Position numbers and translations under genes: made by a program. A stretch of 64,000 nucleotides of DNA from positions 672,001 through 736,000 of the forward strand of contig CM000436.1 in the NCBI GenBank assembly GCA_000165345.1. Reading direction: 5' to 3'. The notes beneath the pieces were generated by a model, which saw nothing but the letters and a program-made list of their open reading frames with translations, was not told the DNA's origin and made no database searches. Shown here piece by piece: positions 8,529 through 21,348 of this stretch (position 1 is its first letter; every line of letters starts with the position of its first letter).

Positions 8529-10415
8529 ATGTCTCCTATTACATTGAAGCAATATGTTTTGCTTAGTTTCGGGCTACTTTTGGGGCTTTTTGTACATTTA
8601 TTAAGTGTATACGATTTTTACTTTTACCACATAATCATGCACATAACTATAACCAAAGCGTCCACCATGATAATTACAAATGCAGGTTTATTGACTTTAT
8701 ACTTTTTGGGTAAGGTTATTTTGAATATGTTTGTGGGAAGATTAAGAGATATTGAACTGGAAGAAATCATTGATCAAGGGCGAATGTTTTTATTAGATAC
8801 AATCTTTTTTTTGTTATTTAGTAGCCCAACAATAGATAATATAGAAGTTGGAGCAATGGTCCTTTCAAGATACATTACTCTTATTTTGGTTTTAAAGCTT
8901 TTACATTTAATTTCCCATATTCGAATTAACCACATGTTTGAATTAGACAGACCAAAAACTACTGCAATTGTTAGAATGGCAGCTTTGCTTAATATTCTCC
9001 TGATTATTGACATAAGTTTAGTTTTCAAGTATTATGGCCTATTGTCAAAAGATTCTACTCTGAGGTTGTGGGTATTTTTCGAGAGTGTTTCTTTGCTTGT
9101 TTCATGTAGCACTTCTATTGGTAAATACCTCGTTCATGTTGTAGATTTGAAGCTCCAAGCCATTCAATTATTAATGAGACAAGAGGAGGATGGAACCCCT
9201 GAACAAGGAAATACTCATTCTTCGGGAATGCAAGCTCATAACTTTGTATGGTCGAATAAGAATGCTATATTATTTTATTTGGAGGTGTTTGGCGATATAT
9301 GCTCTTTAATTACTTACCTTCTCTTCATTATTCTCTTCCTTGTGCTAAATCCTTCCAGAATTCCATTATATATTATGGGAGATATCTTCCACGTCTTAAA
9401 AGCTTTGTACAGCAAGCTATCATCATTCAGGAGATATAGAAAGCTCACAAAAAATATTGAAACCAGACTTCAGGAAGCTACACTTGAAGAGATTGAGAGA
9501 ATTGATACTTGTATTGTTTGTAGGGACACTTTGTATATTGGCTCAAAAAAGATTCCTTGCGGTCATGTATTCCATCTGGATTGTCTAAAATCTTGGTTTA
9601 TTCAACAGCAAACTTGTCCAATATGTAGGGCTCCCATAACTATCAGAGATGAAGAGCCTGAACATTCAGCAACTACTGCAGAAGAAGATAACAACTCTCC
9701 ACAAATACCAGAGGACCAGGATGAAACTAATGATATTAAAGATCCCACTTCTTCAGACCAAGCGAAACCCAACATCAATTCAGAGCCTACTAGTGCACCA
9801 TCATCTTCAGCGTTTAATTCAAATGAATCCGGGAGCTCAACTGATGTTAGCTCTGACAGTTTTAAGAAAATCTTCAAGAACTGGATAGTAAGTGAGCATA
9901 AAGCTAAACCTGTTGAAGAAACAACATCAACAAGAATGGCGAAGGACTTGAAAGAAACCAAATTTCAGATATCGAAACACCCTTTGTTTAAAAGCAAGCG
10001 TGATGACTTATATAGAAAGGTTTCAAAAGCTGCAAATAGAGGGGATCATATAAATAGCCTTCCTCCTCAGTTACTTTCACTACAACCTCAAATTTTACTA
10101 GAATTAAATAAAAATTTGGAACAGAGAACATTTGGAAGTGAATATGGAAGTCAAGAGTTTTCTGAAATGATGAGCAAAATGTATAAGAAAAATGCAGATA
10201 TTTGGTTGAATATGGTTAGCGAGCTCATCAAAGCTAAAGAACAAAATTGTATCCAACATTCGGTACCAATTGAACGAAAAAGCAGTATTCACATACAAGG
10301 AGAAAGTTTATCTAATATGTATGAAAGTAGTTCTAGGGCAGACCCCTTGAGAAATCTAATGGATGCTGTCAATAATCAGCTTAACGAAACAAAAAATATT
10401 AATAAGGCTGCTTGA
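8529..10415 (+). CDS. HRD1: ERAD E3 ubiquitin ligase, HRD1/synoviolin-like (multi-TM N-terminus plus RING-H2)
   Basis: The N-terminal half has about 6 hydrophobic helices. The RING-H2 at nt 9510-9626 reads CIVCRDTLYIGSKKIPCGHVFHLDCLKSWFIQQQTCPICRAPI, with the spacing and the W/QQ-TCP motif typical of HRD1. The C-terminus is low-complexity. The track start at 8523 is GTG, and the ATG is at 8529. Confidence 0.85.
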   Translation: MSPITLKQYVLLSFGLLLGLFVHLLSVYDFYFYHIIMHITITKASTMIITNAGLLTLYFLGKVILNMFVGRLRDIELEEIIDQGRMFLLDTIFFLLFSSPTIDNIEVGAMVLSRYITLILVLKLLHLISHIRINHMFELDRPKTTAIVRMAALLNILLIIDISLVFKYYGLLSKDSTLRLWVFFESVSLLVSCSTSIGKYLVHVVDLKLQAIQLLMRQEEDGTPEQGNTHSSGMQAHNFVWSNKNAILFYLEVFGDICSLITYLLFIILFLVLNPSRIPLYIMGDIFHVLKALYSKLSSFRRYRKLTKNIETRLQEATLEEIERIDTCIVCRDTLYIGSKKIPCGHVFHLDCLKSWFIQQQTCPICRAPITIRDEEPEHSATTAEEDNNSPQIPEDQDETNDIKDPTSSDQAKPNINSEPTSAPSSSAFNSNESGSSTDVSSDSFKKIFKNWIVSEHKAKPVEETTSTRMAKDLKETKFQISKHPLFKSKRDDLYRKVSKAANRGDHINSLPPQLLSLQPQILLELNKNLEQRTFGSEYGSQEFSEMMSKMYKKNADIWLNMVSELIKAKEQNCIQHSVPIERKSSIHIQGESLSNMYESSSRADPLRNLMDAVNNQLNETKNINKAA

Positions 10416-10508
10416 TTAATTGTAGATGAAAGTTGTGATTAGAATATTGAGATAGAGAGATATAGGTAGTTTATATTATAATATCTGAATAAAGAAGTGT
10501 ATTCATAT

Positions 10509-11726
10509 CTATATAGTTATAACGTAACCGGGGGGAAGTATATCCATTGCAAGATGGATATTACTTCCGATTACTATTGAGACCAATAGGGCAAACCAAT
10601 TAGGGTTTAGCTCAAGAGCCATTGCGAACTTTTCTTTATGTAGAGCAAGGATAAGTGCTTGAATTGCCATCTCTTTCCCTTTTGAAGAGTTATTAAGCTC
10701 AATAAGTCTTCTTGTAAGTACCGGTAATGGCTGATATTTTGCGATTGAAATGATTCCAATAAATGTGGAAGAGCACGGTAGGGTTAGCACCTTAAGAGTA
10801 TCTTGAATGAAAAGAGGAAACTTGGCTAAACTTGGATATAGATTAAATCCAATTACGGACAGATCATTAAAGCATTCTAAATCTGTTGGAGGTGAATCTG
10901 GAGAAAAAATGCTCACGTACTTTTCTGAATAGTAAAAACTATTTATTTCGTTACATATAAAATCCTTGAGAATTTTGTCGGCAGAGCATAGTGGAAGGAG
11001 CGAAACCACCTCAACCTGAGCCTCTGAGAGGTAGACTTTGGATAATCGGTTTTGATCTTGATGATCACCTCCATAATTTAGAAGAAAGTATTTAACTTCT
11101 ACATTAGGGGTTAAACTGCTTTCACTTATATCTTGAAATCTTGGAAATCCACCATTATCCAGCCTTTTGAGGCAACTAGAAGAATCCATGAGCCAGATTA
11201 CAAGTAACTGTCTTTCCTTCCCAATGTTTTGGTGCTCTTCTGTCCAATTTATATTATTTGGTCCTGGAGCACCAAAACTGTTATCAGTTCCATTCTGTAA
11301 TTCAGATCTTTCAATAATAGCACCTTCTTTGAGGAAATCGCTAAAACAATCTGGAATTGGCCTTATTTCTTGTTGATTAATACTATTTTGCACCTCTGAC
11401 TTAATTGGAAAAGAGTCCTGTTCAGTCTTAAGCTCTATATTGCTACTTGTTATTTGCTCCATCAACATATCTATAATCGTAAGCGACGGTACTAATGAAC
11501 AGCTGCCAATTGGATACCAGCTCACCTCCTTAAATCTATGGTTAGCAAAAACTAACTCCCTCTTCATTTCATCCAAGACAAAATAAACAGAAATCAAACA
11601 CTCAGAGTATTCCCTATTAAACTCATCATCTAGAAACAACCGTTTCAGTGCATCTTTGAAATACTCCAGACGCAGAATGGAGTGCTCACTATTAAAATCA
11701 ATGTCAAAAACTATTAAAATCGACAT
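10509..11726 (-). CDS. Hypothetical protein (405 aa); the N-terminus faintly resembles a vWA-like fold
   Basis: The track ORF starts at TTG (11753). The first ATG at 11726 gives MSILIVFDIDFNSEHSILRLEYFKDALKRLF... It is a long clean ORF with TTGGCGCCA 53 nt upstream of the ATG. Confidence 0.6.
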   Translation of the reverse strand: MSILIVFDIDFNSEHSILRLEYFKDALKRLFLDDEFNREYSECLISVYFVLDEMKRELVFANHRFKEVSWYPIGSCSLVPSLTIIDMLMEQITSSNIELKTEQDSFPIKSEVQNSINQQEIRPIPDCFSDFLKEGAIIERSELQNGTDNSFGAPGPNNINWTEEHQNIGKERQLLVIWLMDSSSCLKRLDNGGFPRFQDISESSLTPNVEVKYFLLNYGGDHQDQNRLSKVYLSEAQVEVVSLLPLCSADKILKDFICNEINSFYYSEKYVSIFSPDSPPTDLECFNDLSVIGFNLYPSLAKFPLFIQDTLKVLTLPCSSTFIGIISIAKYQPLPVLTRRLIELNNSSKGKEMAIQALILALHKEKFAMALELNPNWFALLVSIVIGSNIHLAMDILPPGYVITI

Positions 11727-11823: not shown

Positions 11824-13140
11824 CTAATCAAAATAAATAGTCTCCAGCTCACTGATTATTCCCGAAACCCTATCAAATATCAGCTTTAGCTTATTACTTT
11901 TAGTTATTTCTTCGTGAAAGATGTTTTCCCTAGCCTCAATTGGAATATCTAACTTCCCAACTTTGTTGAAAATCTCTACGCCCACATTTATACAATCTGA
12001 GATCAAATTGCCTAAAATTGTCATCTGTGATACAGAACCTTCTCTAAATGTATAGACAAGGGTCCCAAACATTAAGGAGGATCTATTTTCTCCAAACTTT
12101 CTGTATGTGTGCCTGATCTTGCACTCCGTTAAAATTTTAGAAATCAGCTCGCACGGTACTCCGAGCCTTTCGCAATCAACTGAAACAAGATGTGTATCTG
12201 TTCCATCTCCAAGTAGAGGAATTCCTGAGTCAAGCATTGTCTGCGCTAGAACAGCAGAGTTATCAAGTGCTGCTGCTACAAACTCACTAGTTCGAGAAGT
12301 TAACATTCCTTGAATTTGGACAGCAAATGACCCAATTTGATGATTATGAGGGCCTCCTTGGAGGCCTGGAAATACTGCGGAGTTAACTTTCTGAAATAAT
12401 CCAGGATTTTTGCTGTTGTTCAACATCAAGAAGCCACCTTTAGGACCACCCAAACTGCTTTGAGTGTTAGAATAAATGATGTCGCAATATCTGTATGGAT
12501 TGTTGTCCTCCCTTCCATACCTATCAAATGATATCAAAAGTGCAATTTCGCTAATATCAGCGACTAAAAAGATTTTAAATTCATTGCAAATCTCACTAAG
12601 CAGTCTGTAGTCTATGAATAATGTTAATACATCGGATGGAACAAGTAACAACTTGGGCTTTAATATCTTACATTTCTCCCTCAGGTCAACTATATCAAAC
12701 CCCCTACCTTTTTTATCCAAATTATAATATTCAACTTGGTAATAATTTTCCAATACAGTGTCAGAATCACCCCTAATCCTCAAAATTCGATCCCCCTTAT
12801 TCAGTAATCCCATACAGATGGCCAACTCAGCATGGCTTCCACTATAACACTGGATATTAAATAGCCATTCGTCATTGCTTTTTTTGTCTAATTTTAGAAA
12901 TTGTTTTAATCTACTTGCGCAGAGCGTTTCTATCTTATCAATAACGTGTGTTCCACCATAATACCTTGTTCCAGGAAAACCCTCTGAATATTTGTTTGTA
13001 AGGATACTCCCAAGGACTTTTCTCGCAGCATTAATCATAACATTTTCCTTGGGGTGTAAGTTTAAATGAGAATTCTGAAAATCTTTTTCCTTATTAATAA
13101 TATTGAATAACTCTTGATCAGATTCAATTGTTGTATTCAT
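11824..13140 (-). CDS. SHMT-fold paralog lacking the PLP lysine (predicted pseudoenzyme or regulatory subunit)
   Basis: Clear SHMT family signatures are kept: LTNKYSEGFPGTRYYGGTHVIDKIETLC (nt 12952-12999 encode TNKYSEGFPGTRYYGG) and VNSAVFPGLQGGPHNH (FPGLQGGP = nt 12349-12372). The canonical TTTTHKTLRGPRGG is YSNTQSSLGGPKGG (Q227-S228 at nt 12457-12462 replace His-Lys). HGGHLTHG is replaced by RGDSDTVLENY. ADxAH is ADISE. The C-terminal substrate Arg (..G[LV]RLGT..) is ..SLMFGT... Confidence 0.85.
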   Translation of the reverse strand: MNTTIESDQELFNIINKEKDFQNSHLNLHPKENVMINAARKVLGSILTNKYSEGFPGTRYYGGTHVIDKIETLCASRLKQFLKLDKKSNDEWLFNIQCYSGSHAELAICMGLLNKGDRILRIRGDSDTVLENYYQVEYYNLDKKGRGFDIVDLREKCKILKPKLLLVPSDVLTLFIDYRLLSEICNEFKIFLVADISEIALLISFDRYGREDNNPYRYCDIIYSNTQSSLGGPKGGFLMLNNSKNPGLFQKVNSAVFPGLQGGPHNHQIGSFAVQIQGMLTSRTSEFVAAALDNSAVLAQTMLDSGIPLLGDGTDTHLVSVDCERLGVPCELISKILTECKIRHTYRKFGENRSSLMFGTLVYTFREGSVSQMTILGNLISDCINVGVEIFNKVGKLDIPIEARENIFHEEITKSNKLKLIFDRVSGIISELETIYFD

Positions 13141-13398
13141 ACCTAAATGATGACGAAATTAAGTTATTAATATCAAAGATACAGTCTGTTTAGTAATTTA
13201 TTTAAGATTCTTTTTTTTTGTTACTTATTTCTAAAAAAGTGCTCGCCCCCTTTATTTGATTAAATTTTTCCCCACATGCAAGCATGTTTAACAGTGTTAG
13301 TTTCATCGTATTTACATAAATAAAATACTTATATAAATTAATTAAAATAATGAATAATGTGGATGTAAAATAGAACCTCTTATTTTTAATTAATATAA

Positions 13399-14229
13399 TT
13401 AGAAAATGATTCTAAAAATAATTACTAATATTAGAAAAGCAGTTAAATAAAGAACTATTTTAGTTATTCTTCTCCTTCGATCTCTTTCAGAAATTACATT
13501 AATCTCGTGTAGTAGGTGAAAACTGTCTGTATTAATTTCTGTTTCCTTAATTTTATCTTGAAAAGTATCAATAGTAACTTGTTCAGAGGCAATCTCATTT
13601 AATAGAATATTCTGAATACTCATTAACTCTTTCGTGGACTCCTTTAATTTAATTAACTCTGCAAAACAATGATTGGTTAATATTGGGCAATAAATGAGTA
13701 AAATAAAACCAAACCTCTTCGTATAATAATGTCACTTACCTTGGTTTTGTTCAAATAAGAGTTGTTTTTCCAATTCTTTAAAATCTGGTAAAGGCATATA
13801 TTGGGAGGTATGGACGAAAGAAGAAACAGAAGAGACAGAGGTATTTGATAATGAATTCTTTTCTAATTGGTTTCTTAAACAATTATCAACTTCATATCTT
13901 TCTAAGGAGAAAATAGTCTGAAAATGAAATAATAGATTCTCAAATAACAGTTTATAATGAGGATTTATATTGTTTTCCTTTTCCAATAACATAATACAGT
14001 ACTTAAAAAGATGTTGAGTTTCTTTAATTTTGAGATCTCTCTCAATATAACAACTTTCATTGTTTAATGAGTTAATATTTTCTCCAAAGTTTAATTCTTT
14101 CAAGTAATCTATATTTTCCTTAACCTGCTTAAAACATTTGCAAACGATTTCGTCCATTCCTTCTTTAATTAGAGTACTTTTGAAATTTTCAAAGTCACTT
14201 TTCAATGACAAGCAATTACCATAATTCAT
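13399..14229 (-). CDS. Tail-anchored Qc-SNARE (syntaxin-6/8/Tlg1-like), two exons
   Basis: ORFs 13732..14229 and 13399..13623 join through an 81-nt intron to give ...LFEQNQ|ELIKLKESTKELMSIQNILLNEIASEQVTIDTFQDKIKETEINTDS...RRRRITKIVLYLTAFLILVIIFRIIF. E-x3-Q-x3-I-D-x-F-x3-I-x2-T matches the zero-layer region of Qc SNAREs (compare syntaxin 6 ELEEQAVMLEDFSHELEST). There is a single C-terminal TM anchor. Confidence 0.7.
13659..13739 (-). other. Intron (81 nt, phase 1)
   Basis: On the minus strand the donor is caa g|gtaagt (GT at 13739-13738) and the acceptor is ttgttttgcag| (AG at 13660-13659). The splice restores the frame into ORF 13399..13623 (G+AG = Glu, then LIKLKESTKELM). Confidence 0.7.
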
Positions 14230-14520
14230 TTCACAATTTAGATTTAGAGTAGTTCTTTTATTAATTACTTAAAGAATTTATTGCATTTTATTTCTTGTTT
14301 AATTTAATTATGAGTAATATAGCAATCTCTCCAAACATTCAAACTCTCCAATTCTGACTATCAGGTTTAAACACATACAAAATAGCCTGAAGGATTTCTA
14401 AAGTCTAAACTTGAATAACTTATCTAACTTAATCAGATTTTAACTTTTCTGACTTTTTCACTGGCTATCCATGTATTTTGTGAGGTACAGATAAATTTTG
14501 CGAGCTTAGAAAATGATGCT

Positions 14521-14530
14521 TTGGCGCCAA
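14521..14530. promoter_or_regulatory. Perfect palindromic E2F-like site TTGGCGCCAA in a divergent promoter
   Basis: Read directly at 14521-14530, in the 641-nt spacer between the divergent SNARE gene (ATG 14229, minus) and the acidic-protein gene (ATG 14871, plus). Confidence 0.45.
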
Positions 14531-14870
14531 TCGCTTTGCTAATACTGCATTTAGGAGTTGAAAAATTAAATAGTTAAAATTATTTAGACAAGAGCCTGTT
14601 GTTGAAGCTGAAAGGTATTTGATTATCTTAGACCGAATTTTCCTTTTCGTTCCTCTACAAATTACTGGAATAATAAGTCTGCATGCAATTTACATCTTTT
14701 GCGGGAACTGAAAGCAAAATTGTAGAAAAACAAAATTTACTGCTAAAAATAAGAATTAAACAAACTTCTCATTTTAAAGCACTAAAAGAATCAAATAGAG
14801 CGAACTGACCTACATAAATGTGTGTGCTTATTTATGAACCCCGAGTTTGAAAATCTATAAAATTAATCTT

Positions 14871-15290
14871 ATGGAAACAATGCAAAATTGGGAAATTATA
14901 GACGACTACGATATTGAGAAGGAAAATGAAAAGGTTAAAAATAGTGATATCTTATCAGATTTACTAAGTGATTATGAACTTGACAACAGCTTTATGAAAA
15001 AGGATATTAATCAGCAGCTTGAGGAAATTAATATATTGATTAAAGAAGTTAATCAAGAAAAGGTAGAATTATTGAATTCATTTCCATCTTGTTCATTAGC
15101 AATTATTAAGAGCTTAACCAGAGGTGATGAAATTGATGAAGAAAATATGGAGATTGATCAGATGTCACTCTCAAGCAGCGAGATCAACTCTAGCAATGAT
15201 TCACCTTTGTTTGAAACACGAGTAAATATCGACCTGCATCAGAGTCTTACGGACTCTCCAGGAAGCATGAATATATCAGACTTTCTTTAG
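14871..15290 (+). CDS. Small acidic hypothetical protein (139 aa)
   Basis: The track ORF begins at TTG (14847). The first ATG at 14871 gives METMQNWEIIDDYDIEKENEKV... The protein is D/E-rich with a predicted coiled segment. No family recognised. Confidence 0.5.
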   Translation: METMQNWEIIDDYDIEKENEKVKNSDILSDLLSDYELDNSFMKKDINQQLEEINILIKEVNQEKVELLNSFPSCSLAIIKSLTRGDEIDEENMEIDQMSLSSSEINSSNDSPLFETRVNIDLHQSLTDSPGSMNISDFL

Positions 15291-15358: not shown

Positions 15359-16696
15359 CTAATACTTATCTACGATAGAAACAAATTCAAACGATGAGGC
15401 AAACTTTCGCACTGTTTGCCTGATATTCTCTATTGCTGGAGAGGCCTTAATATTAGAAACAAACTCTGCAAGAGTCTCCCCATCCTTTTGAATATCTCGA
15501 GCAGTAGTTAAAACTTCTACAATTATCCTTGAAACGAATTTGAAATCATCCAACTCCATCCCTCTGCTCGCAAGGGCTGCAGTTCCAAGTCTGACGCCAC
15601 TGCAATTCATAGTTCTCCCATCACAAGGTAAAGAACTTCTACTTGTTGAAATTTCGCATACTTCTAGTGCTTTCTCAGCCTTAGCCCCAGAAATGTTCAA
15701 TGATCTTGTATCTATTAGAATTTTGTGGGAATCAGTTCCATTTGTAAGAATCTTGATTCCAGACTCCTCGAGCAATTTGCAAAGCAATTGAGAGCTTTCT
15801 AGCACTCTACTTGCATATTTAACCCAAGAAGCAGAAACTACTTGTTTCAGTTGGAAACAAAGGGCTGCAACTTGGTTGAAATGAATACTAGACTGAATTT
15901 CTTTAGAAACTGACTCATCAATCTTAACTCTGATCTTGGACTCTACGTCCTTTCTGTAAAATATTATTGCTGACCTTGGTCCTCTTAATGTCTTGTGAGA
16001 CGTTGTTGTAATGAAATCTGCGTAGTCTTTGGGTGACGGGTACTTCCCTGCAACCACCAAACCAGAGTAGTGAGCGATATCTACCATCAGGTAGGCCTTC
16101 ACTTTGTCGCAGATATCCCTAAACCTCTTAAAGTTGATCATTCTAGGATACCCACTAGCTCCTGCTATTATCATCTTTGGTCTAAATAGTATTGCATTTT
16201 CTTCCAACTTATCGTAATCTATCACTCCTTCTAAATCAGTTACATAAGGGAGTGACTCAAAATAGTGAGATGAACAGTTAACTCTCTTCAAATTTGTATA
16301 GTGTCCGTGAGTCAGGTGGCCTCCATGTTGTAATGACAATCCCATTATTCTATCATTAGGTTTTAATACTGCATTTAATACTGCAAAATTTGCAGGAGAG
16401 CCACTATGAGGCTTTACATTAGCACCCCATACTTCAGGATCTAGTCCATATGCTTTTAAGGCTCTTTCATTTGTGAGCTCTAATAGTTCTTGTGCAGAAG
16501 TTGAGTTTAATTCCATATTTTTATCATTATTAAACATTGAGAATGTACTTGACAAGCTGTCCAAGACTCCCTTCGATACAAAGTTTTCGGATGCTATCAT
16601 TTCTAGTCCATTAATCTGTCTATCATATTCTTCATTGATTAGCTCATACATAATGGGATCCAGCTCTTTTAATGATTTTTCCTGTAAAAATACCAT
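15359..16696 (-). CDS. SHMT: Serine hydroxymethyltransferase (PLP-binding core intact; trans-acting loops degenerate)
   Basis: Family signatures: GLEMIASENF, HSGSPANFAV, LQHGGHLTHG (nt ~16304-16327), MVDIAHYSGL, TTTSHKTLRGPR (Lys235 codon at 15992-15994) and CSGVRLGTAALASRG. However, the NKYSEG-PG-RYYGG loop is replaced by FSMFNNDKNMELNSTS (nt ~16499-16549), and VFPGLQGGPHNH is replaced by VSKEIQSSIHFN (nt ~15869-15913). Confidence 0.9.
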   Translation of the reverse strand: MVFLQEKSLKELDPIMYELINEEYDRQINGLEMIASENFVSKGVLDSLSSTFSMFNNDKNMELNSTSAQELLELTNERALKAYGLDPEVWGANVKPHSGSPANFAVLNAVLKPNDRIMGLSLQHGGHLTHGHYTNLKRVNCSSHYFESLPYVTDLEGVIDYDKLEENAILFRPKMIIAGASGYPRMINFKRFRDICDKVKAYLMVDIAHYSGLVVAGKYPSPKDYADFITTTSHKTLRGPRSAIIFYRKDVESKIRVKIDESVSKEIQSSIHFNQVAALCFQLKQVVSASWVKYASRVLESSQLLCKLLEESGIKILTNGTDSHKILIDTRSLNISGAKAEKALEVCEISTSRSSLPCDGRTMNCSGVRLGTAALASRGMELDDFKFVSRIIVEVLTTARDIQKDGETLAEFVSNIKASPAIENIRQTVRKFASSFEFVSIVDKY

Positions 16697-17104
16697 TTCT
16701 TAAGTGATTATTTATTACAGTTCTGTATTACACGGTCTTTATATTCCTAAATCTTTAGTAGCTTCACAAATTTTTATTTCTAGCGTTTAAACAAAGCTAT
16801 ATTCGAATTTCAACTTTGTTTTTTATATTTTGGTAATTGTGTTCAATTATTAAACTTTTTTGTCCAAATAAAGTACATGCGCCATGTGTGGGTAATTTAT
16901 CAGTAAATCGTTGAATGAATGCTAACCCAGAAATTTTTCTAATTTATAAAAATATTATTCTCTAAAAATTACTATGATCTCTGAATAAATTTCGCTCTTT
17001 AGATTTCTCAAGATAACTAGGACAGTACTAATCTACCAAAGATAGAATTTTATTACAAATCAATTATTATTGTCCTACTAGAAAAACCGGAAATGTATTG
17101 AAAA

Positions 17105-19741
17105 CTAATAGAAATCAATTAAATCGTGTTGATTAATTGAATTTGAAGCTAACCTCGAAAAAATGTGGCAATAACTCTGAACAGGGAATAAGCTAGCCAG
17201 AAATACATCTAACTTAGAAACCAAGTTCAGTTGGTTGCCGCATAAATTGAATAGTAGATTTCTTTGTTGAAATTTACTAGCAATAAAAATCTCCAGCAAT
17301 AGTGAAAGAGTCAAAAGATTTTCCCAGGTAAAATTGTTTTTGTTTAATATATCTTCTAAAATTTCTTGATCAAAAACGGATAGTTCATTAATGTTCTCAA
17401 TTGCAAGTTTAATAAGACCAGAAGTGGGGAAATGAACACTTTCTCGCTCACCTTGAAAGTTGTCTGACTCTATGAAAGATTTAAAAGAGCAAACCAACCC
17501 AAAAACGTTCTTCCATTCTATTAAAGAGTAAATAAGACGCCTAAAACCTGTTAAACTCTCATCTGCTTCTATATTTGGGTTTCCACTATCTAATACAAAC
17601 TCCATAATGTTTAGTGCAGATTTCATTGGCCTAATGTTACTGGAAACAAAGGCTGAAAGTAACTTTACGTCATTGCCAAGAAATGACAATCCAAGCAGAA
17701 TTTCTAAGTGTTCATTATTCTCTTTAAATCTAAAAATCTTATGGTATGAATCTGACTTGCTTTTCATAATTGCTTTTCTAAGAATAGAAATAACCTCTAC
17801 TGATTGGTTAATAGACCATGAATATAATACATTTGAAAAGTTAGTTAAGTTGTTTTTAGCAAATTCAAATAATCGTTTTTCAATTCCATTTTTGGTATAG
17901 ATATCAATAATGTTGAAAAACAAATTTATATCATTTCTATCCAGATTCTGAAAGTCCTGAATAGTTTTAATCGAATTCAATGCAATCCAAAGAGAAGTAG
18001 GTTTTGTAGATTTTGACTCAGGAGGCAATAAAGTGAGCCTCTTTAGTACATGAAGGTGCATTTGAGGAGTTTTCAAAATTGAATGTAAATTATTACTAAG
18101 GTAATTAAACACTCCCTCATACCAACAAGTGTAATTTACTTTAACGATATTCTGGTTTCCATTAGAGTCGCAAGCAAATGTTTTAATTGTGAAAGACATA
18201 CAGCTGTACCAATCATCTGGTAAATTTGTTATATTTTCGTTAGGTTTAATCCCAAGTACAGGAGGAAAAAAAAAGGGGAGACCAAAAAAGATGAATTGGT
18301 CCATATTCCTTAAAATGAAGTTATCTGAAGCCAAATTGCTTTCTTTTTTATATTTCAATACGGTTTTAGAACAACTTTTCTCACTCAAAAATATTGAGTC
18401 TATAATATTTTTGATCAGCTGTTCTTCTTTCTCAATATCTCTTACTTTAAGTGAATCTGAAAATATTCTACTATGTATCTTCAGAATTTCATTAGTTCTT
18501 TGACTTGAAGAGCTGAACTCAGATTCGTCAATATATATTAATGGAGCATCTCCATAAAGTAAGGATGCTAAATCTCTATAATTTGTCTTGTTAGAAAACT
18601 TTTTACCGTAGCTATCATCGCTTAAATGACTACTATAGTTTAAAAAAGACTTTTGAAAACCGTTGAAAAAATTATTAAAAACATTGACATAAATCTGATT
18701 GTTTGATTCCCAAATAACCCCTAACTGTCCATTTTCAAATACTTTGCATGATAGAATATGACAGAGTTTACCAGCATTCCCAATTGTTGATAATTTATCA
18801 AAGTGATATTCGCAAGCTCTTGAATCAATCTTAACTTTTAGCAAAGATAAATTTTTCAAACCAAAATGCTTTTCATCATCCTGTATTATATATATCAACT
18901 CGAATTGATCGCCATTAATTAATGTTTCATAAGATACTAAGTTATTTATCGATAAATTAAGGGATTTATTGCTTCTTTCTTCATCAATATCTAATATATA
19001 TACCTGTTTTAATTGAAAATCAGAAATTCGTTCTTTGTCTCCTTGTGGAAATTCTAGTTTAAAAATTTCATTGAAGCATGAAAAATAGAATCTTCCTAGT
19101 GATGTAACACAGCATTCTCCTAGCTCCCCATCAAAATCAGGTGTTACTTGTTTGTAATACCTCAATTTAAAGTCTGTTTCATTGATATTAAGGTTTTCCA
19201 TTGAATTTTGAGATTCATTTATCTGGCAAATAGCCTCAAAAGAACTATATTGAAAGTTTGAGATCAAGAATATATCTGAATCAGTCATTACTATCACAAT
19301 CAATATGCTGTTGTTCACTTTAAAAGCAGATACTTTTTTAATCAATCTTCCCACAAGAACCATGCAATTAAACAGAAAGCTTTTCCCATCGCAAAGAGAA
19401 TAAATCTCAACCCCACCATCTTTGTCTTCTATGAAAATTAGATCTCCATAATTTATTTCTTCGTTGAAACTTTTATCTTGATTAATATTTCGGTTACGTA
19501 CAAGATTTATATTTCTTACAGACTTAATACCATTTTTAAATGTTTTAATATGCGAATGGCCGCTAAGTGAGTCGTATATTTCCAAATAATGTTCGCTTGA
19601 CAATTCTTTATATTCTTTCAATGTGATGATGTACGCTCCAGATTGAGAATATCTAGAGTACGGTCTTACTAATGAACTGTCTGAAAATGAACCGCTTCCA
19701 AGCGAAGAACCACTGAATTTAGTTTCCTCAAGTCTTAACAT
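17105..19741 (-). CDS. Hypothetical protein (878 aa), family not recognised
   Basis: Uninterrupted 2.6-kb ORF with an ATG at 19741. The N-terminal half alternates short beta-like segments (possibly a beta-propeller) and the C-terminal half looks helical. No diagnostic motif seen. Confidence 0.7.
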   Translation of the reverse strand: MLRLEETKFSGSSLGSGSFSDSSLVRPYSRYSQSGAYIITLKEYKELSSEHYLEIYDSLSGHSHIKTFKNGIKSVRNINLVRNRNINQDKSFNEEINYGDLIFIEDKDGGVEIYSLCDGKSFLFNCMVLVGRLIKKVSAFKVNNSILIVIVMTDSDIFLISNFQYSSFEAICQINESQNSMENLNINETDFKLRYYKQVTPDFDGELGECCVTSLGRFYFSCFNEIFKLEFPQGDKERISDFQLKQVYILDIDEERSNKSLNLSINNLVSYETLINGDQFELIYIIQDDEKHFGLKNLSLLKVKIDSRACEYHFDKLSTIGNAGKLCHILSCKVFENGQLGVIWESNNQIYVNVFNNFFNGFQKSFLNYSSHLSDDSYGKKFSNKTNYRDLASLLYGDAPLIYIDESEFSSSSQRTNEILKIHSRIFSDSLKVRDIEKEEQLIKNIIDSIFLSEKSCSKTVLKYKKESNLASDNFILRNMDQFIFFGLPFFFPPVLGIKPNENITNLPDDWYSCMSFTIKTFACDSNGNQNIVKVNYTCWYEGVFNYLSNNLHSILKTPQMHLHVLKRLTLLPPESKSTKPTSLWIALNSIKTIQDFQNLDRNDINLFFNIIDIYTKNGIEKRLFEFAKNNLTNFSNVLYSWSINQSVEVISILRKAIMKSKSDSYHKIFRFKENNEHLEILLGLSFLGNDVKLLSAFVSSNIRPMKSALNIMEFVLDSGNPNIEADESLTGFRRLIYSLIEWKNVFGLVCSFKSFIESDNFQGERESVHFPTSGLIKLAIENINELSVFDQEILEDILNKNNFTWENLLTLSLLLEIFIASKFQQRNLLFNLCGNQLNLVSKLDVFLASLFPVQSYCHIFSRLASNSINQHDLIDFY

Positions 19742-19977
19742 ATTGTTTTCATCCAGAAAAAGCCGTTAAAACAACAAGGAAGAATAATGACTAAGTATTT
19801 AATTCATCTAAAGCAAAATATTTTTTGAAAATAATTTATACCGGTAAAAATCAGCATACGTATATTACATGAAATATTGGGGAGCTGACAAAATTGTTAA
19901 ATTAATTGAAAAGAAAATCAAAAATAAAGTGTAAAATATTGGTAACAGCTTGATAAAAAGATTTATGTTTTTATTTA

Positions 19978-20706
19978 ATGCAATCTATAACGCATAGATT
20001 AGCAGACCAATTCAGAAGTGTGGTGGGAAACTTTATCCCAATTGACTGTTCCAACTCCAAATTTGAATCTGATGGATTTCTAACTCCTAAAGAATTTGTT
20101 GATTCTGGGGACTATTTGATTCTTCAATTCCCGAACTGGTTTTGGAGAAGCGCTTCTGAAGAATATATTGTGAGGTGGCTTCCTCAAAATAAGCAATATC
20201 TGCATATAGATAACGTACCATGTAGAAAGAGACTTGACTCTTCTAAACTTTGTATTTCAAAAAACTGTCTCGATATTACATCAGATAGTAAAGGAGATGA
20301 ATGGATTTTACCCACAAACGAAAATGTAGAAAAGCTCGGTAACATCAATATAAATGATGATGTCAGATATTATGACATTAGTGTTACATATGACAAATTC
20401 TTTCAAACCCCAAGAATATGGCTTTTTGGATACAATAAGGAGGGATATCCTTTAAGTACTGAGGAAATGGTTGAAGATATCATTAGCGATTACGCAACTA
20501 AAACAATCACACTAGATCCCCATCCATTTACGGGAATATTATGTGTGTCTATTCACCCTTGTAACCACTCAAGCTTGCTTAAAAAAATGGCCAAGAACCA
20601 TCCGCCGCACCTTTCAATAGTTATATTACTGAAATTCATTACTACTGTTATTCCATCAATTGAGTTAGACAATACAATAGATATCGATATTAAGTTTGAT
20701 ACATAG
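19978..20706 (+). CDS. ATG3: Autophagy E2-like enzyme ATG3
   Basis: The N-terminus SKFESDGFLTPKEFVDSGDYLILQFPNWFW, then RYYDISVTYDKFFQTPRIWLFGYNKEGYPLSTEEMVEDIISDYATKTITLDPHP, the catalytic HPC motif SIHPCNHS (Cys codon at 20560-20562) and LLKFITTVIPSIELD all align closely with ATG3 as recalled from yeast and human. Confidence 0.9.
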   Translation: MQSITHRLADQFRSVVGNFIPIDCSNSKFESDGFLTPKEFVDSGDYLILQFPNWFWRSASEEYIVRWLPQNKQYLHIDNVPCRKRLDSSKLCISKNCLDITSDSKGDEWILPTNENVEKLGNININDDVRYYDISVTYDKFFQTPRIWLFGYNKEGYPLSTEEMVEDIISDYATKTITLDPHPFTGILCVSIHPCNHSSLLKKMAKNHPPHLSIVILLKFITTVIPSIELDNTIDIDIKFDT

Positions 20707-20733
20707 TTTATTCTTTAAACTTCAATTATTTCT

Positions 20734-21348
20734 CTAGTCTAATAAATTCTGTATACCTTCTTGAACTTCAGACTTAACTGCAGAATCACACTGAATCTGA
20801 TCAAGAACTTCTTGGTCTCTTTTTAAAAACTTCTTAACTACCAGAAAGTTGCATCCTGCAATCGGACAGATTTTTTTTTTGCTACTACCCAAATACTTAA
20901 GAAGGGCGTCCTTCTCGTAAATATGATTTTTGCACATATTCTCAACCTTTTCTGATGTGTCATATCTGTGTGATACAGGGTCCTTGAAAACATCTCTAGT
21001 CAAGCAACATACTTTAGGAAGAACTTTTCTTGATACTACAGAAACCTGGTCTTTTTCTTTATTTCTTCGTGTATTGCATGTTAACTCTAATCGTGCCATC
21101 AACATTTCTTTGAAATATTCAAACTCCGCACTCGGGGAATTAAAATTCTCAAATTGCTGATCATTTTCTCCATATAAAACACTTTTGATCCACAACTTCA
21201 TTCTTTCAAAGCTTACAAACAACTCATATAATTTTTTTCTTTCATCTTGACTCAAGTTTTCACCCAGCTTATATTTCTCTGATAATGAATCGTATTTTAT
21301 TGAAAGCCCATTCAAGCTATTCAAATAATTCCTAAGAATATCGTCCAT
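20734..21348 (-). CDS. NSE2: SP-RING SUMO E3 ligase, NSE2/MMS21-like (SMC5/6 complex)
   Basis: The C-terminal region (nt ~20854-21039) reads CCLTRDVFKDPVSHRYDTSEKVENMCKNHIYEKDALLKYLGSSKKKICPIAGCNFLV. This fits the SP-RING pattern C-x-[LI]-T...P...C-x-H...(I/Y)...CP-x-x-GC. The size (204 aa) and helical N-terminus also fit NSE2. Confidence 0.7.
   Translation of the reverse strand: MDDILRNYLNSLNGLSIKYDSLSEKYKLGENLSQDERKKLYELFVSFERMKLWIKSVLYGENDQQFENFNSPSAEFEYFKEMLMARLELTCNTRRNKEKDQVSVVSRKVLPKVCCLTRDVFKDPVSHRYDTSEKVENMCKNHIYEKDALLKYLGSSKKKICPIAGCNFLVVKKFLKRDQEVLDQIQCDSAVKSEVQEGIQNLLD

Follow-up and report, generated by a model that had tools for sequence, protein, structure and literature searches.

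We analyzed a 64,000-nucleotide stretch of Cryptosporidium parvum DNA (GenBank assembly GCA_000165345.1, contig CM000436.1, positions 672,001 to 736,000 of the forward strand; hereafter the window), which carries two genes for paralogs of serine hydroxymethyltransferase (SHMT), here called SHMT-A and SHMT-B, and we observe that the two proteins have lost opposite halves of the SHMT active site. Judged by these losses, neither is a self-sufficient SHMT subunit: A fails in the residues that a subunit lends to its partner (trans residues), and B fails in the residues that build its own pocket (cis residues). We hypothesize that in Cryptosporidium A and B work as an obligate A:B heterodimer that has a single composite active site, its other site being dead on both sides, and we put the probability of this reading at about 70%. 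The binding of A to B, the activity of the composite site, and the inactivity of A alone are predictions from sequence. A comparable split is found in an uncultured bacterium, and we lean towards the view that obligate SHMT heterodimers of half-dead paralogs have originated independently at least twice, in Cryptosporidium and in this bacterium. To our knowledge, SHMT, a heavily studied pyridoxal 5'-phosphate (PLP) enzyme, has always been described as a homodimer or a homotetramer.

In the E. coli enzyme, the PLP site is made of Ser35, Gly98, Ser99, His126, Ser175, Asp200, His203, Thr226, His228, Lys229, Arg235, and Arg363 from its own monomer, and of Tyr55, Glu57, Tyr65, and Gly263 from the other monomer (PMC7916883). 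The folate site similarly combines Leu121, Gly125, Leu127, and Asn347 of one subunit with the Glu57 and Tyr64 that its partner provides (PMC7916883). Our residue accounting follows this published list; we scored 12 cis and eight trans positions, the latter being Y55, E57, Y64, Y65, F257, P258, G262, and G263 in E. coli numbering. Given this composition of the site, the two loops that are lost in SHMT-A are exactly the parts that an SHMT subunit lends to its partner (PMC7916883).

The SHMT-A coding sequence (15359..16696, minus strand; 445 amino acids) is an uninterrupted open reading frame, and its product matches the SHMT profile Pfam PF00464 from end to end (E = 2.6e-122; 408.7 bits, for a cut-off of 27) and human SHMT2 with an E value of ~1e-104 in phmmer. 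The protein is 100% identical to the one annotated as "cytosolic serine hydroxymethyl transferase" in C. parvum Iowa II, and its identity to the counterparts from C. hominis and C. tyzzeri is 99-100%. Its AlphaFold2 monomer model has a predicted local distance difference test (pLDDT) score of 88 and a predicted template modeling (pTM) score of 0.89, and superposes on solved SHMTs with a Foldseek template modeling (TM) score of ~0.92; the model of SHMT-B reaches a pLDDT of 91.5, a pTM of 0.91, and a TM of ~0.9. For both models the top matches in the PDB are SHMTs only, with TM scores of ~0.9. Both proteins, by profile match and predicted fold, belong to the SHMT family. Among the Foldseek matches are the structures of rabbit SHMT E75L and E75Q (PDB 1rv3 and 1rvu), which are mechanistic mutants. 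These two mutants have reportedly lost the folate-dependent reaction. No Cryptosporidium SHMT structure was found among the PDB entries searched.

The first partner-directed loop of SHMT-A, FSMFNNDKNMELNSTS (amino acids 52-67; 16496..16543, minus strand), aligns opposite the canonical NKYSEGYPGxRYYGG, with the conserved positions NKY(55)xE(57)GxPGxRY(64)Y(65)GG, and is four residues shorter. The second, VSKEIQSSIHFN (amino acids 263-274; 15875..15910, minus strand), aligns opposite the canonical VFPxLQGGPHNH, with the conserved positions VF(257)P(258)xxQG(262)G(263)PHNH. An earlier note, made from the letters of the window alone, had pointed to both segments at positions a few bases off (~16499-16549 and ~15869-15913) and had described the first as devoid of the conserved Tyr/Glu/Tyr-Tyr and about four residues short, which is what we find. 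The placement of the loops comes from two independent alignments, one by phmmer against human SHMT2 and one by MAFFT with 243 SHMTs including E. coli GlyA (MG1655); the latter is the alignment with diverse SHMTs that the note had proposed, and it confirms both losses.

None of the eight trans residues is kept in SHMT-A, in which these positions read N, D, L, gap, S, K, S, and S, and P264 is replaced by Ile. By comparison, Y55, E57, Y65, F257, P258, G262, G263, and P264 are invariant in the non-Cryptosporidium SHMTs sampled (219/219), and Y64 is present in 218 of the 219; the earlier note had likewise counted the loops with the best-conserved segments of SHMTs. The trans residues are likewise invariant across 119 further bacterial SHMTs. 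Of the 12 Cryptosporidium A-type sequences that were recovered, most have the same loop losses, the exceptions being the C. andersoni ortholog, which retains a Tyr aligned to Y55 and Pro at position 258, and a non-syntenic C. serpentis paralog (P0012), which retains Tyr at positions 55 and 64 and Pro at 258. In sliding windows, the loops rank at the 16th (loop 1) and 27th (loop 2) percentile of conservation among A orthologs. The degenerate loops are also the lowest-confidence parts of the SHMT-A model, apart from the insertion after GGHLTHG, with pLDDT values of 68 and 75 for the blocks covering residues 51-70 and of 57 for block 261-270.

The pocket of SHMT-A is complete with respect to the PLP site, since all 12 cis residues are kept (S36, G99, S100, H127, S181, D206, H209, T232, H234, K235, R241, and R369). 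The contrast between 12/12 cis residues kept and 0/8 trans residues kept is significant (Fisher exact p = 8e-6). The PLP-lysine motif TTTSHKTLRGPR (15974..16009, minus strand) is intact, with T232, H234, K235, and R241 corresponding to T226, H228, K229, and R235 of E. coli. The GGHLTHG loop (16304..16324, minus strand) is intact as well; its His127 corresponds to H126, which stacks on PLP, and its surroundings contain the equivalents of L121, G125, and L127 of the folate pocket. In the intact SGVRLGT segment (15581..15601, minus strand), Arg369 is equivalent to R363, which binds the substrate carboxylate. The earlier note had stated that the protein keeps the rest of the catalytic apparatus, which holds for the PLP site and fails in the folate pocket, as E. 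coli N345, K346, and N347 are replaced by S, R, and S in the segment ISTSRSSLP (amino acids 349-357; 15626..15652, minus strand). These three replacements are common to all Cryptosporidium A orthologs.

SHMT-B (11824..13140, minus strand; 438 amino acids) is encoded on the same strand, 2218 bp downstream of SHMT-A, by an open reading frame whose product also matches PF00464 (E = 8.4e-75; 252.3 bits, same cut-off of 27) and shares only 23% identity with A. Its orthologs are annotated as "mitochondrial SHMT" or "SHMT 2" in other Cryptosporidium genomes. SHMT-B is the mirror image of SHMT-A: all eight trans residues are present and only three of the 12 cis residues remain, namely Gly98, Ser99, and Asp200 (Fisher exact p = 1.4e-3). 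Loop 1, LTNKYSEGFPGTRYYGG (12952..13002, minus strand), is intact, with Tyr51, Glu53, Tyr60, and Tyr61 corresponding to E. coli Y55, E57, Y64, and Y65, and so is loop 2, VFPGLQGGPHNH (12340..12375, minus strand), which carries Phe257, Pro258, Gly262, and Gly263 in E. coli numbering. Both loops are modeled with pLDDT values of 77-82. The pocket, on the other hand, is ruined. The PLP motif YSNTQSSLGGPKGG (12433..12474, minus strand) carries the changes T226N, H228Q, K229S, and R235K, and the GGHLTHG loop with His126 is deleted at the segment RILRIRGDSD (12760..12789, minus strand). Furthermore, H203 is replaced by Glu, S175 by Asp, S35 by Lys, and R363 by Met.

The 10 B orthologs in which these positions are covered all keep the trans residues and have lost the pocket, with R363 lost in most species. 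The loops rank at the 97th (loop 1) and 99th (loop 2) percentile of conservation among B orthologs in sliding windows. Loop conservation is low in A and high in B, the reverse of ordinary SHMTs, in which every chain conserves the loops strongly. The reciprocal pattern extends from C. parvum to C. andersoni and C. muris, over which identity falls to 55% for A and 46% for B. Between C. parvum and C. ubiquitum, the ratio of nonsynonymous to synonymous substitution rates (dN/dS) is 0.08-0.09 for SHMT-A and 0.10-0.14 for SHMT-B, with a synonymous divergence (dS) of ~0.7-0.96. Both genes are under purifying selection, and neither is a decaying pseudogene. A and B lie on one contig in every species checked, and C. 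ubiquitum as well as two C. andersoni assemblies keep their order, strand, and neighbors.

A and B fit the pattern predicted for a half-site heterodimer, that is, two co-occurring paralogs, one with the lysine and the other with the residues that reach into the partner. If A forms a tight SHMT dimer with B, the working site would be the pocket of A closed by Tyr51, Glu53, Tyr60, Tyr61, and Gly262-Gly263 of B, and this composite site would convert serine and tetrahydrofolate into glycine and 5,10-methylene-tetrahydrofolate. The other site would be dead, the ruined pocket of B facing the ruined loops of A. An A:A dimer would be devoid of phosphate, carboxylate, and folate contacts, and a B:B dimer would be unable to hold PLP covalently. 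With the mixed dimer as the main species, the unused halves would have been free to mutate, making the two genes mutually dependent. The earlier note had considered the loss of both loops unexpected unless another polypeptide supplies them; the existence of partner-donated residues in SHMT (PMC7916883) and the presence of all eight in the neighboring B lend this idea strong, if inferential, support.

We searched a profile built from the B orthologs against 1.84 billion cluster representatives and scored the best 147 non-Cryptosporidium proteins at the 20 positions. Most of these proteins are canonical, and a few have a dead pocket with intact loops, similar to SHMT-B. One of the latter (P0375) is encoded at 10001-11185 of a locus (L005) on contig_3 of ENA ERZ26050963, a bacterial-looking contig of 104 kb with 37% GC. 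It shows K229G, H228Y, a degenerate His126 loop, and all eight trans residues. A second SHMT gene (8766-10010) lies directly upstream and overlaps it by 10 nucleotides, and the product of this gene has all 12 cis residues, whereas both of its trans loops are gone, NKYAEGYPGKRYYGG being replaced by NSRNEVPYNKEQ and AVFPGGQGGPL by AVNSIQDDTF. The two proteins are 32% identical to each other, and the upstream one is 55-62% identical to its 119 nearest bacterial relatives, all of which are canonical. As in Cryptosporidium, the two copies are less alike mutually than they are to canonical SHMTs; tandem duplication is the obvious reading for the bacterial pair.

A second SHMT open reading frame was found near none of 144 ordinary bacterial glyA loci that were fetched in passing, and the relatives of P0375 in GTDB genomes and JGI metagenomes lie in ordinary glyA loci only, at 33-53% identity. 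The bacterial pair is a singleton lineage among the relatives searched. Its reciprocal split matches that of Cryptosporidium A and B, but the pair is of the bacterial GlyA type, its genes overlap in an operon, and Asn345 and Asn347 are retained, and the split apparently evolved independently of that in Cryptosporidium. Finding this split in an unrelated organism, between two genes that are translationally coupled, is to be expected if the products form one enzyme, and we regard this putative replica as the strongest indirect support for the heterodimer short of experiment.

Several observations weigh against the heterodimer. N345 and N347, which occur in 219/219 and 218/219 of the non-Cryptosporidium SHMTs, respectively, are both Ser in every Cryptosporidium A, and B does not supply them: C. 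parvum B has Thr at 345 and Arg at 347, and among B orthologs T345 is found in 9/11 and R347 in 8/11. The composite site may bind folate differently, and the binding of antifolates may be altered too. Moreover, DHFR-TS (dihydrofolate reductase-thymidylate synthase) can be dispensed with in C. parvum, in which thymidine kinase provides an alternative route to thymidylate (PMC6800313, PMC12368253). Selection for SHMT catalysis could be weak, given that DHFR-TS is the main consumer of its product. SHMT may perhaps be non-essential in laboratory conditions; the dN/dS values argue for a function in nature. In addition, the neighbor-joining tree does not group A and B as sisters, joining them in 3/100 bootstraps with both on long branches; a recent tandem duplication as the source of the pair is not supported by this tree. 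The mean identities of A and B to their two hit sets are uninformative on this origin. Lastly, enzymes of the α-methylserine hydroxymethyltransferase type have Thr and His at positions 55 and 65 (PMC6411801), and single changes at these positions are by themselves no proof of inactivity. They show that single substitutions are tolerated. Glu57 and most of the FPxxQG turn are nevertheless present in these homologues, and their loops have the usual length, so that their losses are not comparable to those of SHMT-A.

These homologues also belong to the case for a different explanation, according to which A is a self-sufficient homodimer with a remodeled site, possibly performing a folate-independent aldolase reaction or other PLP chemistry, while B is a pseudoenzyme unrelated to it that serves in regulation, targeting, or scaffolding, as has been proposed for PfSHMTm of Plasmodium. 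We consider this unlikely. It would account for the complete set of cis residues and the strong purifying selection in A, Thr and His at 55 and 65 illustrate the plasticity it demands (PMC6411801), the changes at N345 and N347 hint at altered folate handling, and Plasmodium does possess a dead SHMT paralog beside a complete active SHMT (PMC3014972). It gives no reason, however, for the eight trans residues of B to lie in its most conserved segments in every species; the residues kept by B have no known role except in the site of a partner, and in PfSHMTm cis and trans residues alike are gone. An A homodimer would also have to work without Tyr55 and the Gly262-Gly263 turn, which bind the PLP phosphate from the partner subunit (PMC7916883), and without Glu57, a loss on which the rabbit E75L and E75Q mutants bear, and the tight bacterial operon repeats the same reciprocal split.

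Less probable still is that both proteins are non-catalytic, the thymidylate cycle being dispensable through thymidine kinase and the genes being kept for RNA binding or scaffolding. The deletion of DHFR-TS in C. parvum (PMC6800313, PMC12368253), the loss of N345 and N347 from both A and B, and the K229M change in the non-syntenic A-like copy of C. serpentis are consistent with this possibility, but random decay would not spare all 12 cis residues in one protein and all eight trans residues in the other throughout the genus, dN/dS is ~0.1 for both, and the retained residues have catalytic or cofactor-binding roles and are not obvious surface features. The chance that the aberrant loops are a sequencing, assembly, or gene-model artefact is negligible. 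The protein identical to SHMT-A occurs on six contigs from several sources, its loop state is repeated in eight further species or assemblies, and its uninterrupted reading frame aligns with SHMTs from end to end, so that this reading, which the earlier note had named as a way in which its claim could fail, is excluded by identical or near-identical proteins in many independent assemblies. We favor the heterodimer because of the reciprocal residues, their conservation across the genus, the selection on both genes, their linkage, the bacterial replica, and the precedents for heterodimers of paralogs.

The gene order shared between Cryptosporidium species comprises a zf-Nse protein, an Atg3-like protein, a protein of 830-885 amino acids, A, small genes, B, a protein of 394-405 amino acids, and an HRD1-like RING protein. 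In the window, the neighbor of A is an 878-amino-acid protein with no Pfam match (within 17105-21348), followed by the Atg3-like protein (Autophagy_act_C; 19978-20706, plus strand) and the Nse2/MMS21-type zf-Nse protein (20734-21348, minus strand). The interval between A and B (13399-15290) contains open reading frames of 74 (minus strand), 165 (minus strand), and 147 (plus strand) amino acids, of which Pfam matches neither the 165- nor the 147-residue one. Between A and B in C. ubiquitum and C. andersoni, genes of comparable size are called at comparable places, which indicates a conserved interval. Upstream of both A and B, on the minus strand, the motif GCATGT occurs in a GC-richer patch (catggcGCATGTac and cttGCATGTgggg; ~16872-16885 and 13270-13285, respectively) of the otherwise AT-rich intergenic DNA, and these patches could be a shared regulatory element, although this is a post-hoc observation.

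SHMT-A, SHMT-B, and E. coli GlyA all start at one alignment column, and neither A nor B has an N-terminal presequence. Given this lack of an extension, the sequence supports neither the "mitochondrial" label of B nor separate compartments for the two proteins. The SHMT of the archigregarine Filipodium (P0076) is canonical, which suggests an origin of the split within the Cryptosporidium lineage. The C. serpentis paralog P0012 (L162:8001-9680) is an A-like protein of 559 amino acids with K229M, S35A, and an insertion of ~100 amino acids in loop 1. Its locus is non-syntenic, with a ThiF protein and a ubiquitin-like protein as neighbors and no adjacent B. P0012 may be an extra dead paralog or a mis-modeled, fast-evolving copy.

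Other divergent SHMTs were seen in the search with the B profile. A eukaryote-like protein on a short contig (P0308; L006:1417-2742, Logan SRR32380747) has K229C, H228F, and H203D together with all eight trans residues, an N-terminal extension of ~45 amino acids, and 28% identity to Cryptosporidium B. Two poppy proteins annotated as "SHMT2, mitochondrial-like" (P0271 of Papaver somniferum and P0275 of P. armeniacum) show K229R, H228Q, and the loss of His126; their partner-directed loops are nearly intact, and their N-terminal extensions are long. They are candidate pseudo-SHMTs of plants that would pair with canonical isoforms. Long plant proteins of the SHM6/7-like type were among the divergent ones as well. 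A protein of Paramecium primaurelia (P0265; L163:6001-7425) has all 12 cis residues and the changes E57P, Y65A, F257A, and G262A. No adjacent partner gene was found for P0265 or for two further divergent proteins from this search, P0349 and P0362.

If the proposed arrangement is correct, Cryptosporidium possesses a natural SHMT heterodimer in which one site is live and the other dead on both sides; this would be a new quaternary solution for the family and nature's counterpart to mixed-mutant experiments with shared active sites. Complementary degeneration of a shared active site, as in a constructive-neutral ratchet, would here have a clean example from nature, and the two apparently independent origins of the split would offer a simple, testable case of homodimer duplicates becoming mutually dependent. 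The labels "cytosolic SHMT" for A and "mitochondrial SHMT" for B are probably misleading, and metabolic models should treat the pair as a single enzyme. Drug screening or structural genomics would naturally start from recombinant A alone, and this construct is predicted to be inactive. The changes in the folate pocket (N345S, N347S) may bear on the selectivity of antifolates, even if the value of the enzyme as a drug target and its therapeutic importance are limited by DHFR-TS being dispensable in C. parvum. The A/B split would surprise PLP enzymologists and is directly testable. We found no relevant report of a heteromeric SHMT, or of a pseudoenzyme SHMT in Cryptosporidium, in a literature search that missed most subscription journals, and given this coverage a prior description of a heteromeric SHMT is conceivable.

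Compared with canonical SHMTs (GlyA, SHMT1, and SHMT2), A and B share the family, the fold, and an active site with cis and trans parts at the tight-dimer interface (PMC7916883). Canonical SHMTs are homodimers or tetramers made of homodimers, with two equivalent sites and both halves in each chain, whereas A and B have one half per chain, so that a mixed dimer alone could hold a complete site, and only a single one.

The closest apicomplexan comparison is Plasmodium falciparum PfSHMTm (PF14_0534), an inactive SHMT paralog for which a (c)2(m)2 heterotetramer serving targeting has been proposed, while PfSHMTc is enzymatically active alone (PMC3014972). PfSHMTm is similar to SHMT-B in the absence of the PLP lysine and in its hypothesized association with an active isoform (PMC3014972). 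In the published alignment, PfSHMTm is also devoid of the YxE...YY and QGG loops, and PfSHMTc is complete. We examined SHMT-B as an equivalent of PfSHMTm and rejected this, since PfSHMTm has lost the trans loops too, of which SHMT-B keeps 8/8 residues. The Plasmodium proposal is thus a heterotetramer for targeting, and not a shared active site such as we propose for Cryptosporidium.

Parasite enzymes that work only as a complex of an impaired and a dead paralog are known from Trypanosoma brucei, namely deoxyhypusine synthase (DHS; DHSc and DHSp) and S-adenosylmethionine decarboxylase (AdoMetDC) with its prozyme. In T. brucei DHS, an impaired catalytic paralog is activated 3000-fold in complex with a dead paralog, the sites lie at the subunit interfaces, and both genes are essential (PMC3663545). 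The fold and the chemistry are unrelated to those of SHMT, and the partner is described as an allosterically activating prozyme, whereas Cryptosporidium B is predicted to be a donor of residues.

Another likeness is with serine palmitoyltransferase (SPT), a fold-type I PLP enzyme that is likewise a heterodimer of paralogs, LCB1 and LCB2 (SPTLC1 and SPTLC2). The PLP lysine is present in LCB2 only, LCB1 keeps other residues predicted for catalysis, and the working model places one active site at the interface, while the bacterial homologue is a homodimer (PMC3794620). SPT differs from the Cryptosporidium pair in belonging to the α-oxoamine synthase family, in being membrane-bound, and in having small activating subunits. 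In addition, our comparison with SPT is based on the loss of the lysine in LCB1 and not on the trans residues of LCB2, whereas the loss in Cryptosporidium is demonstrably reciprocal.

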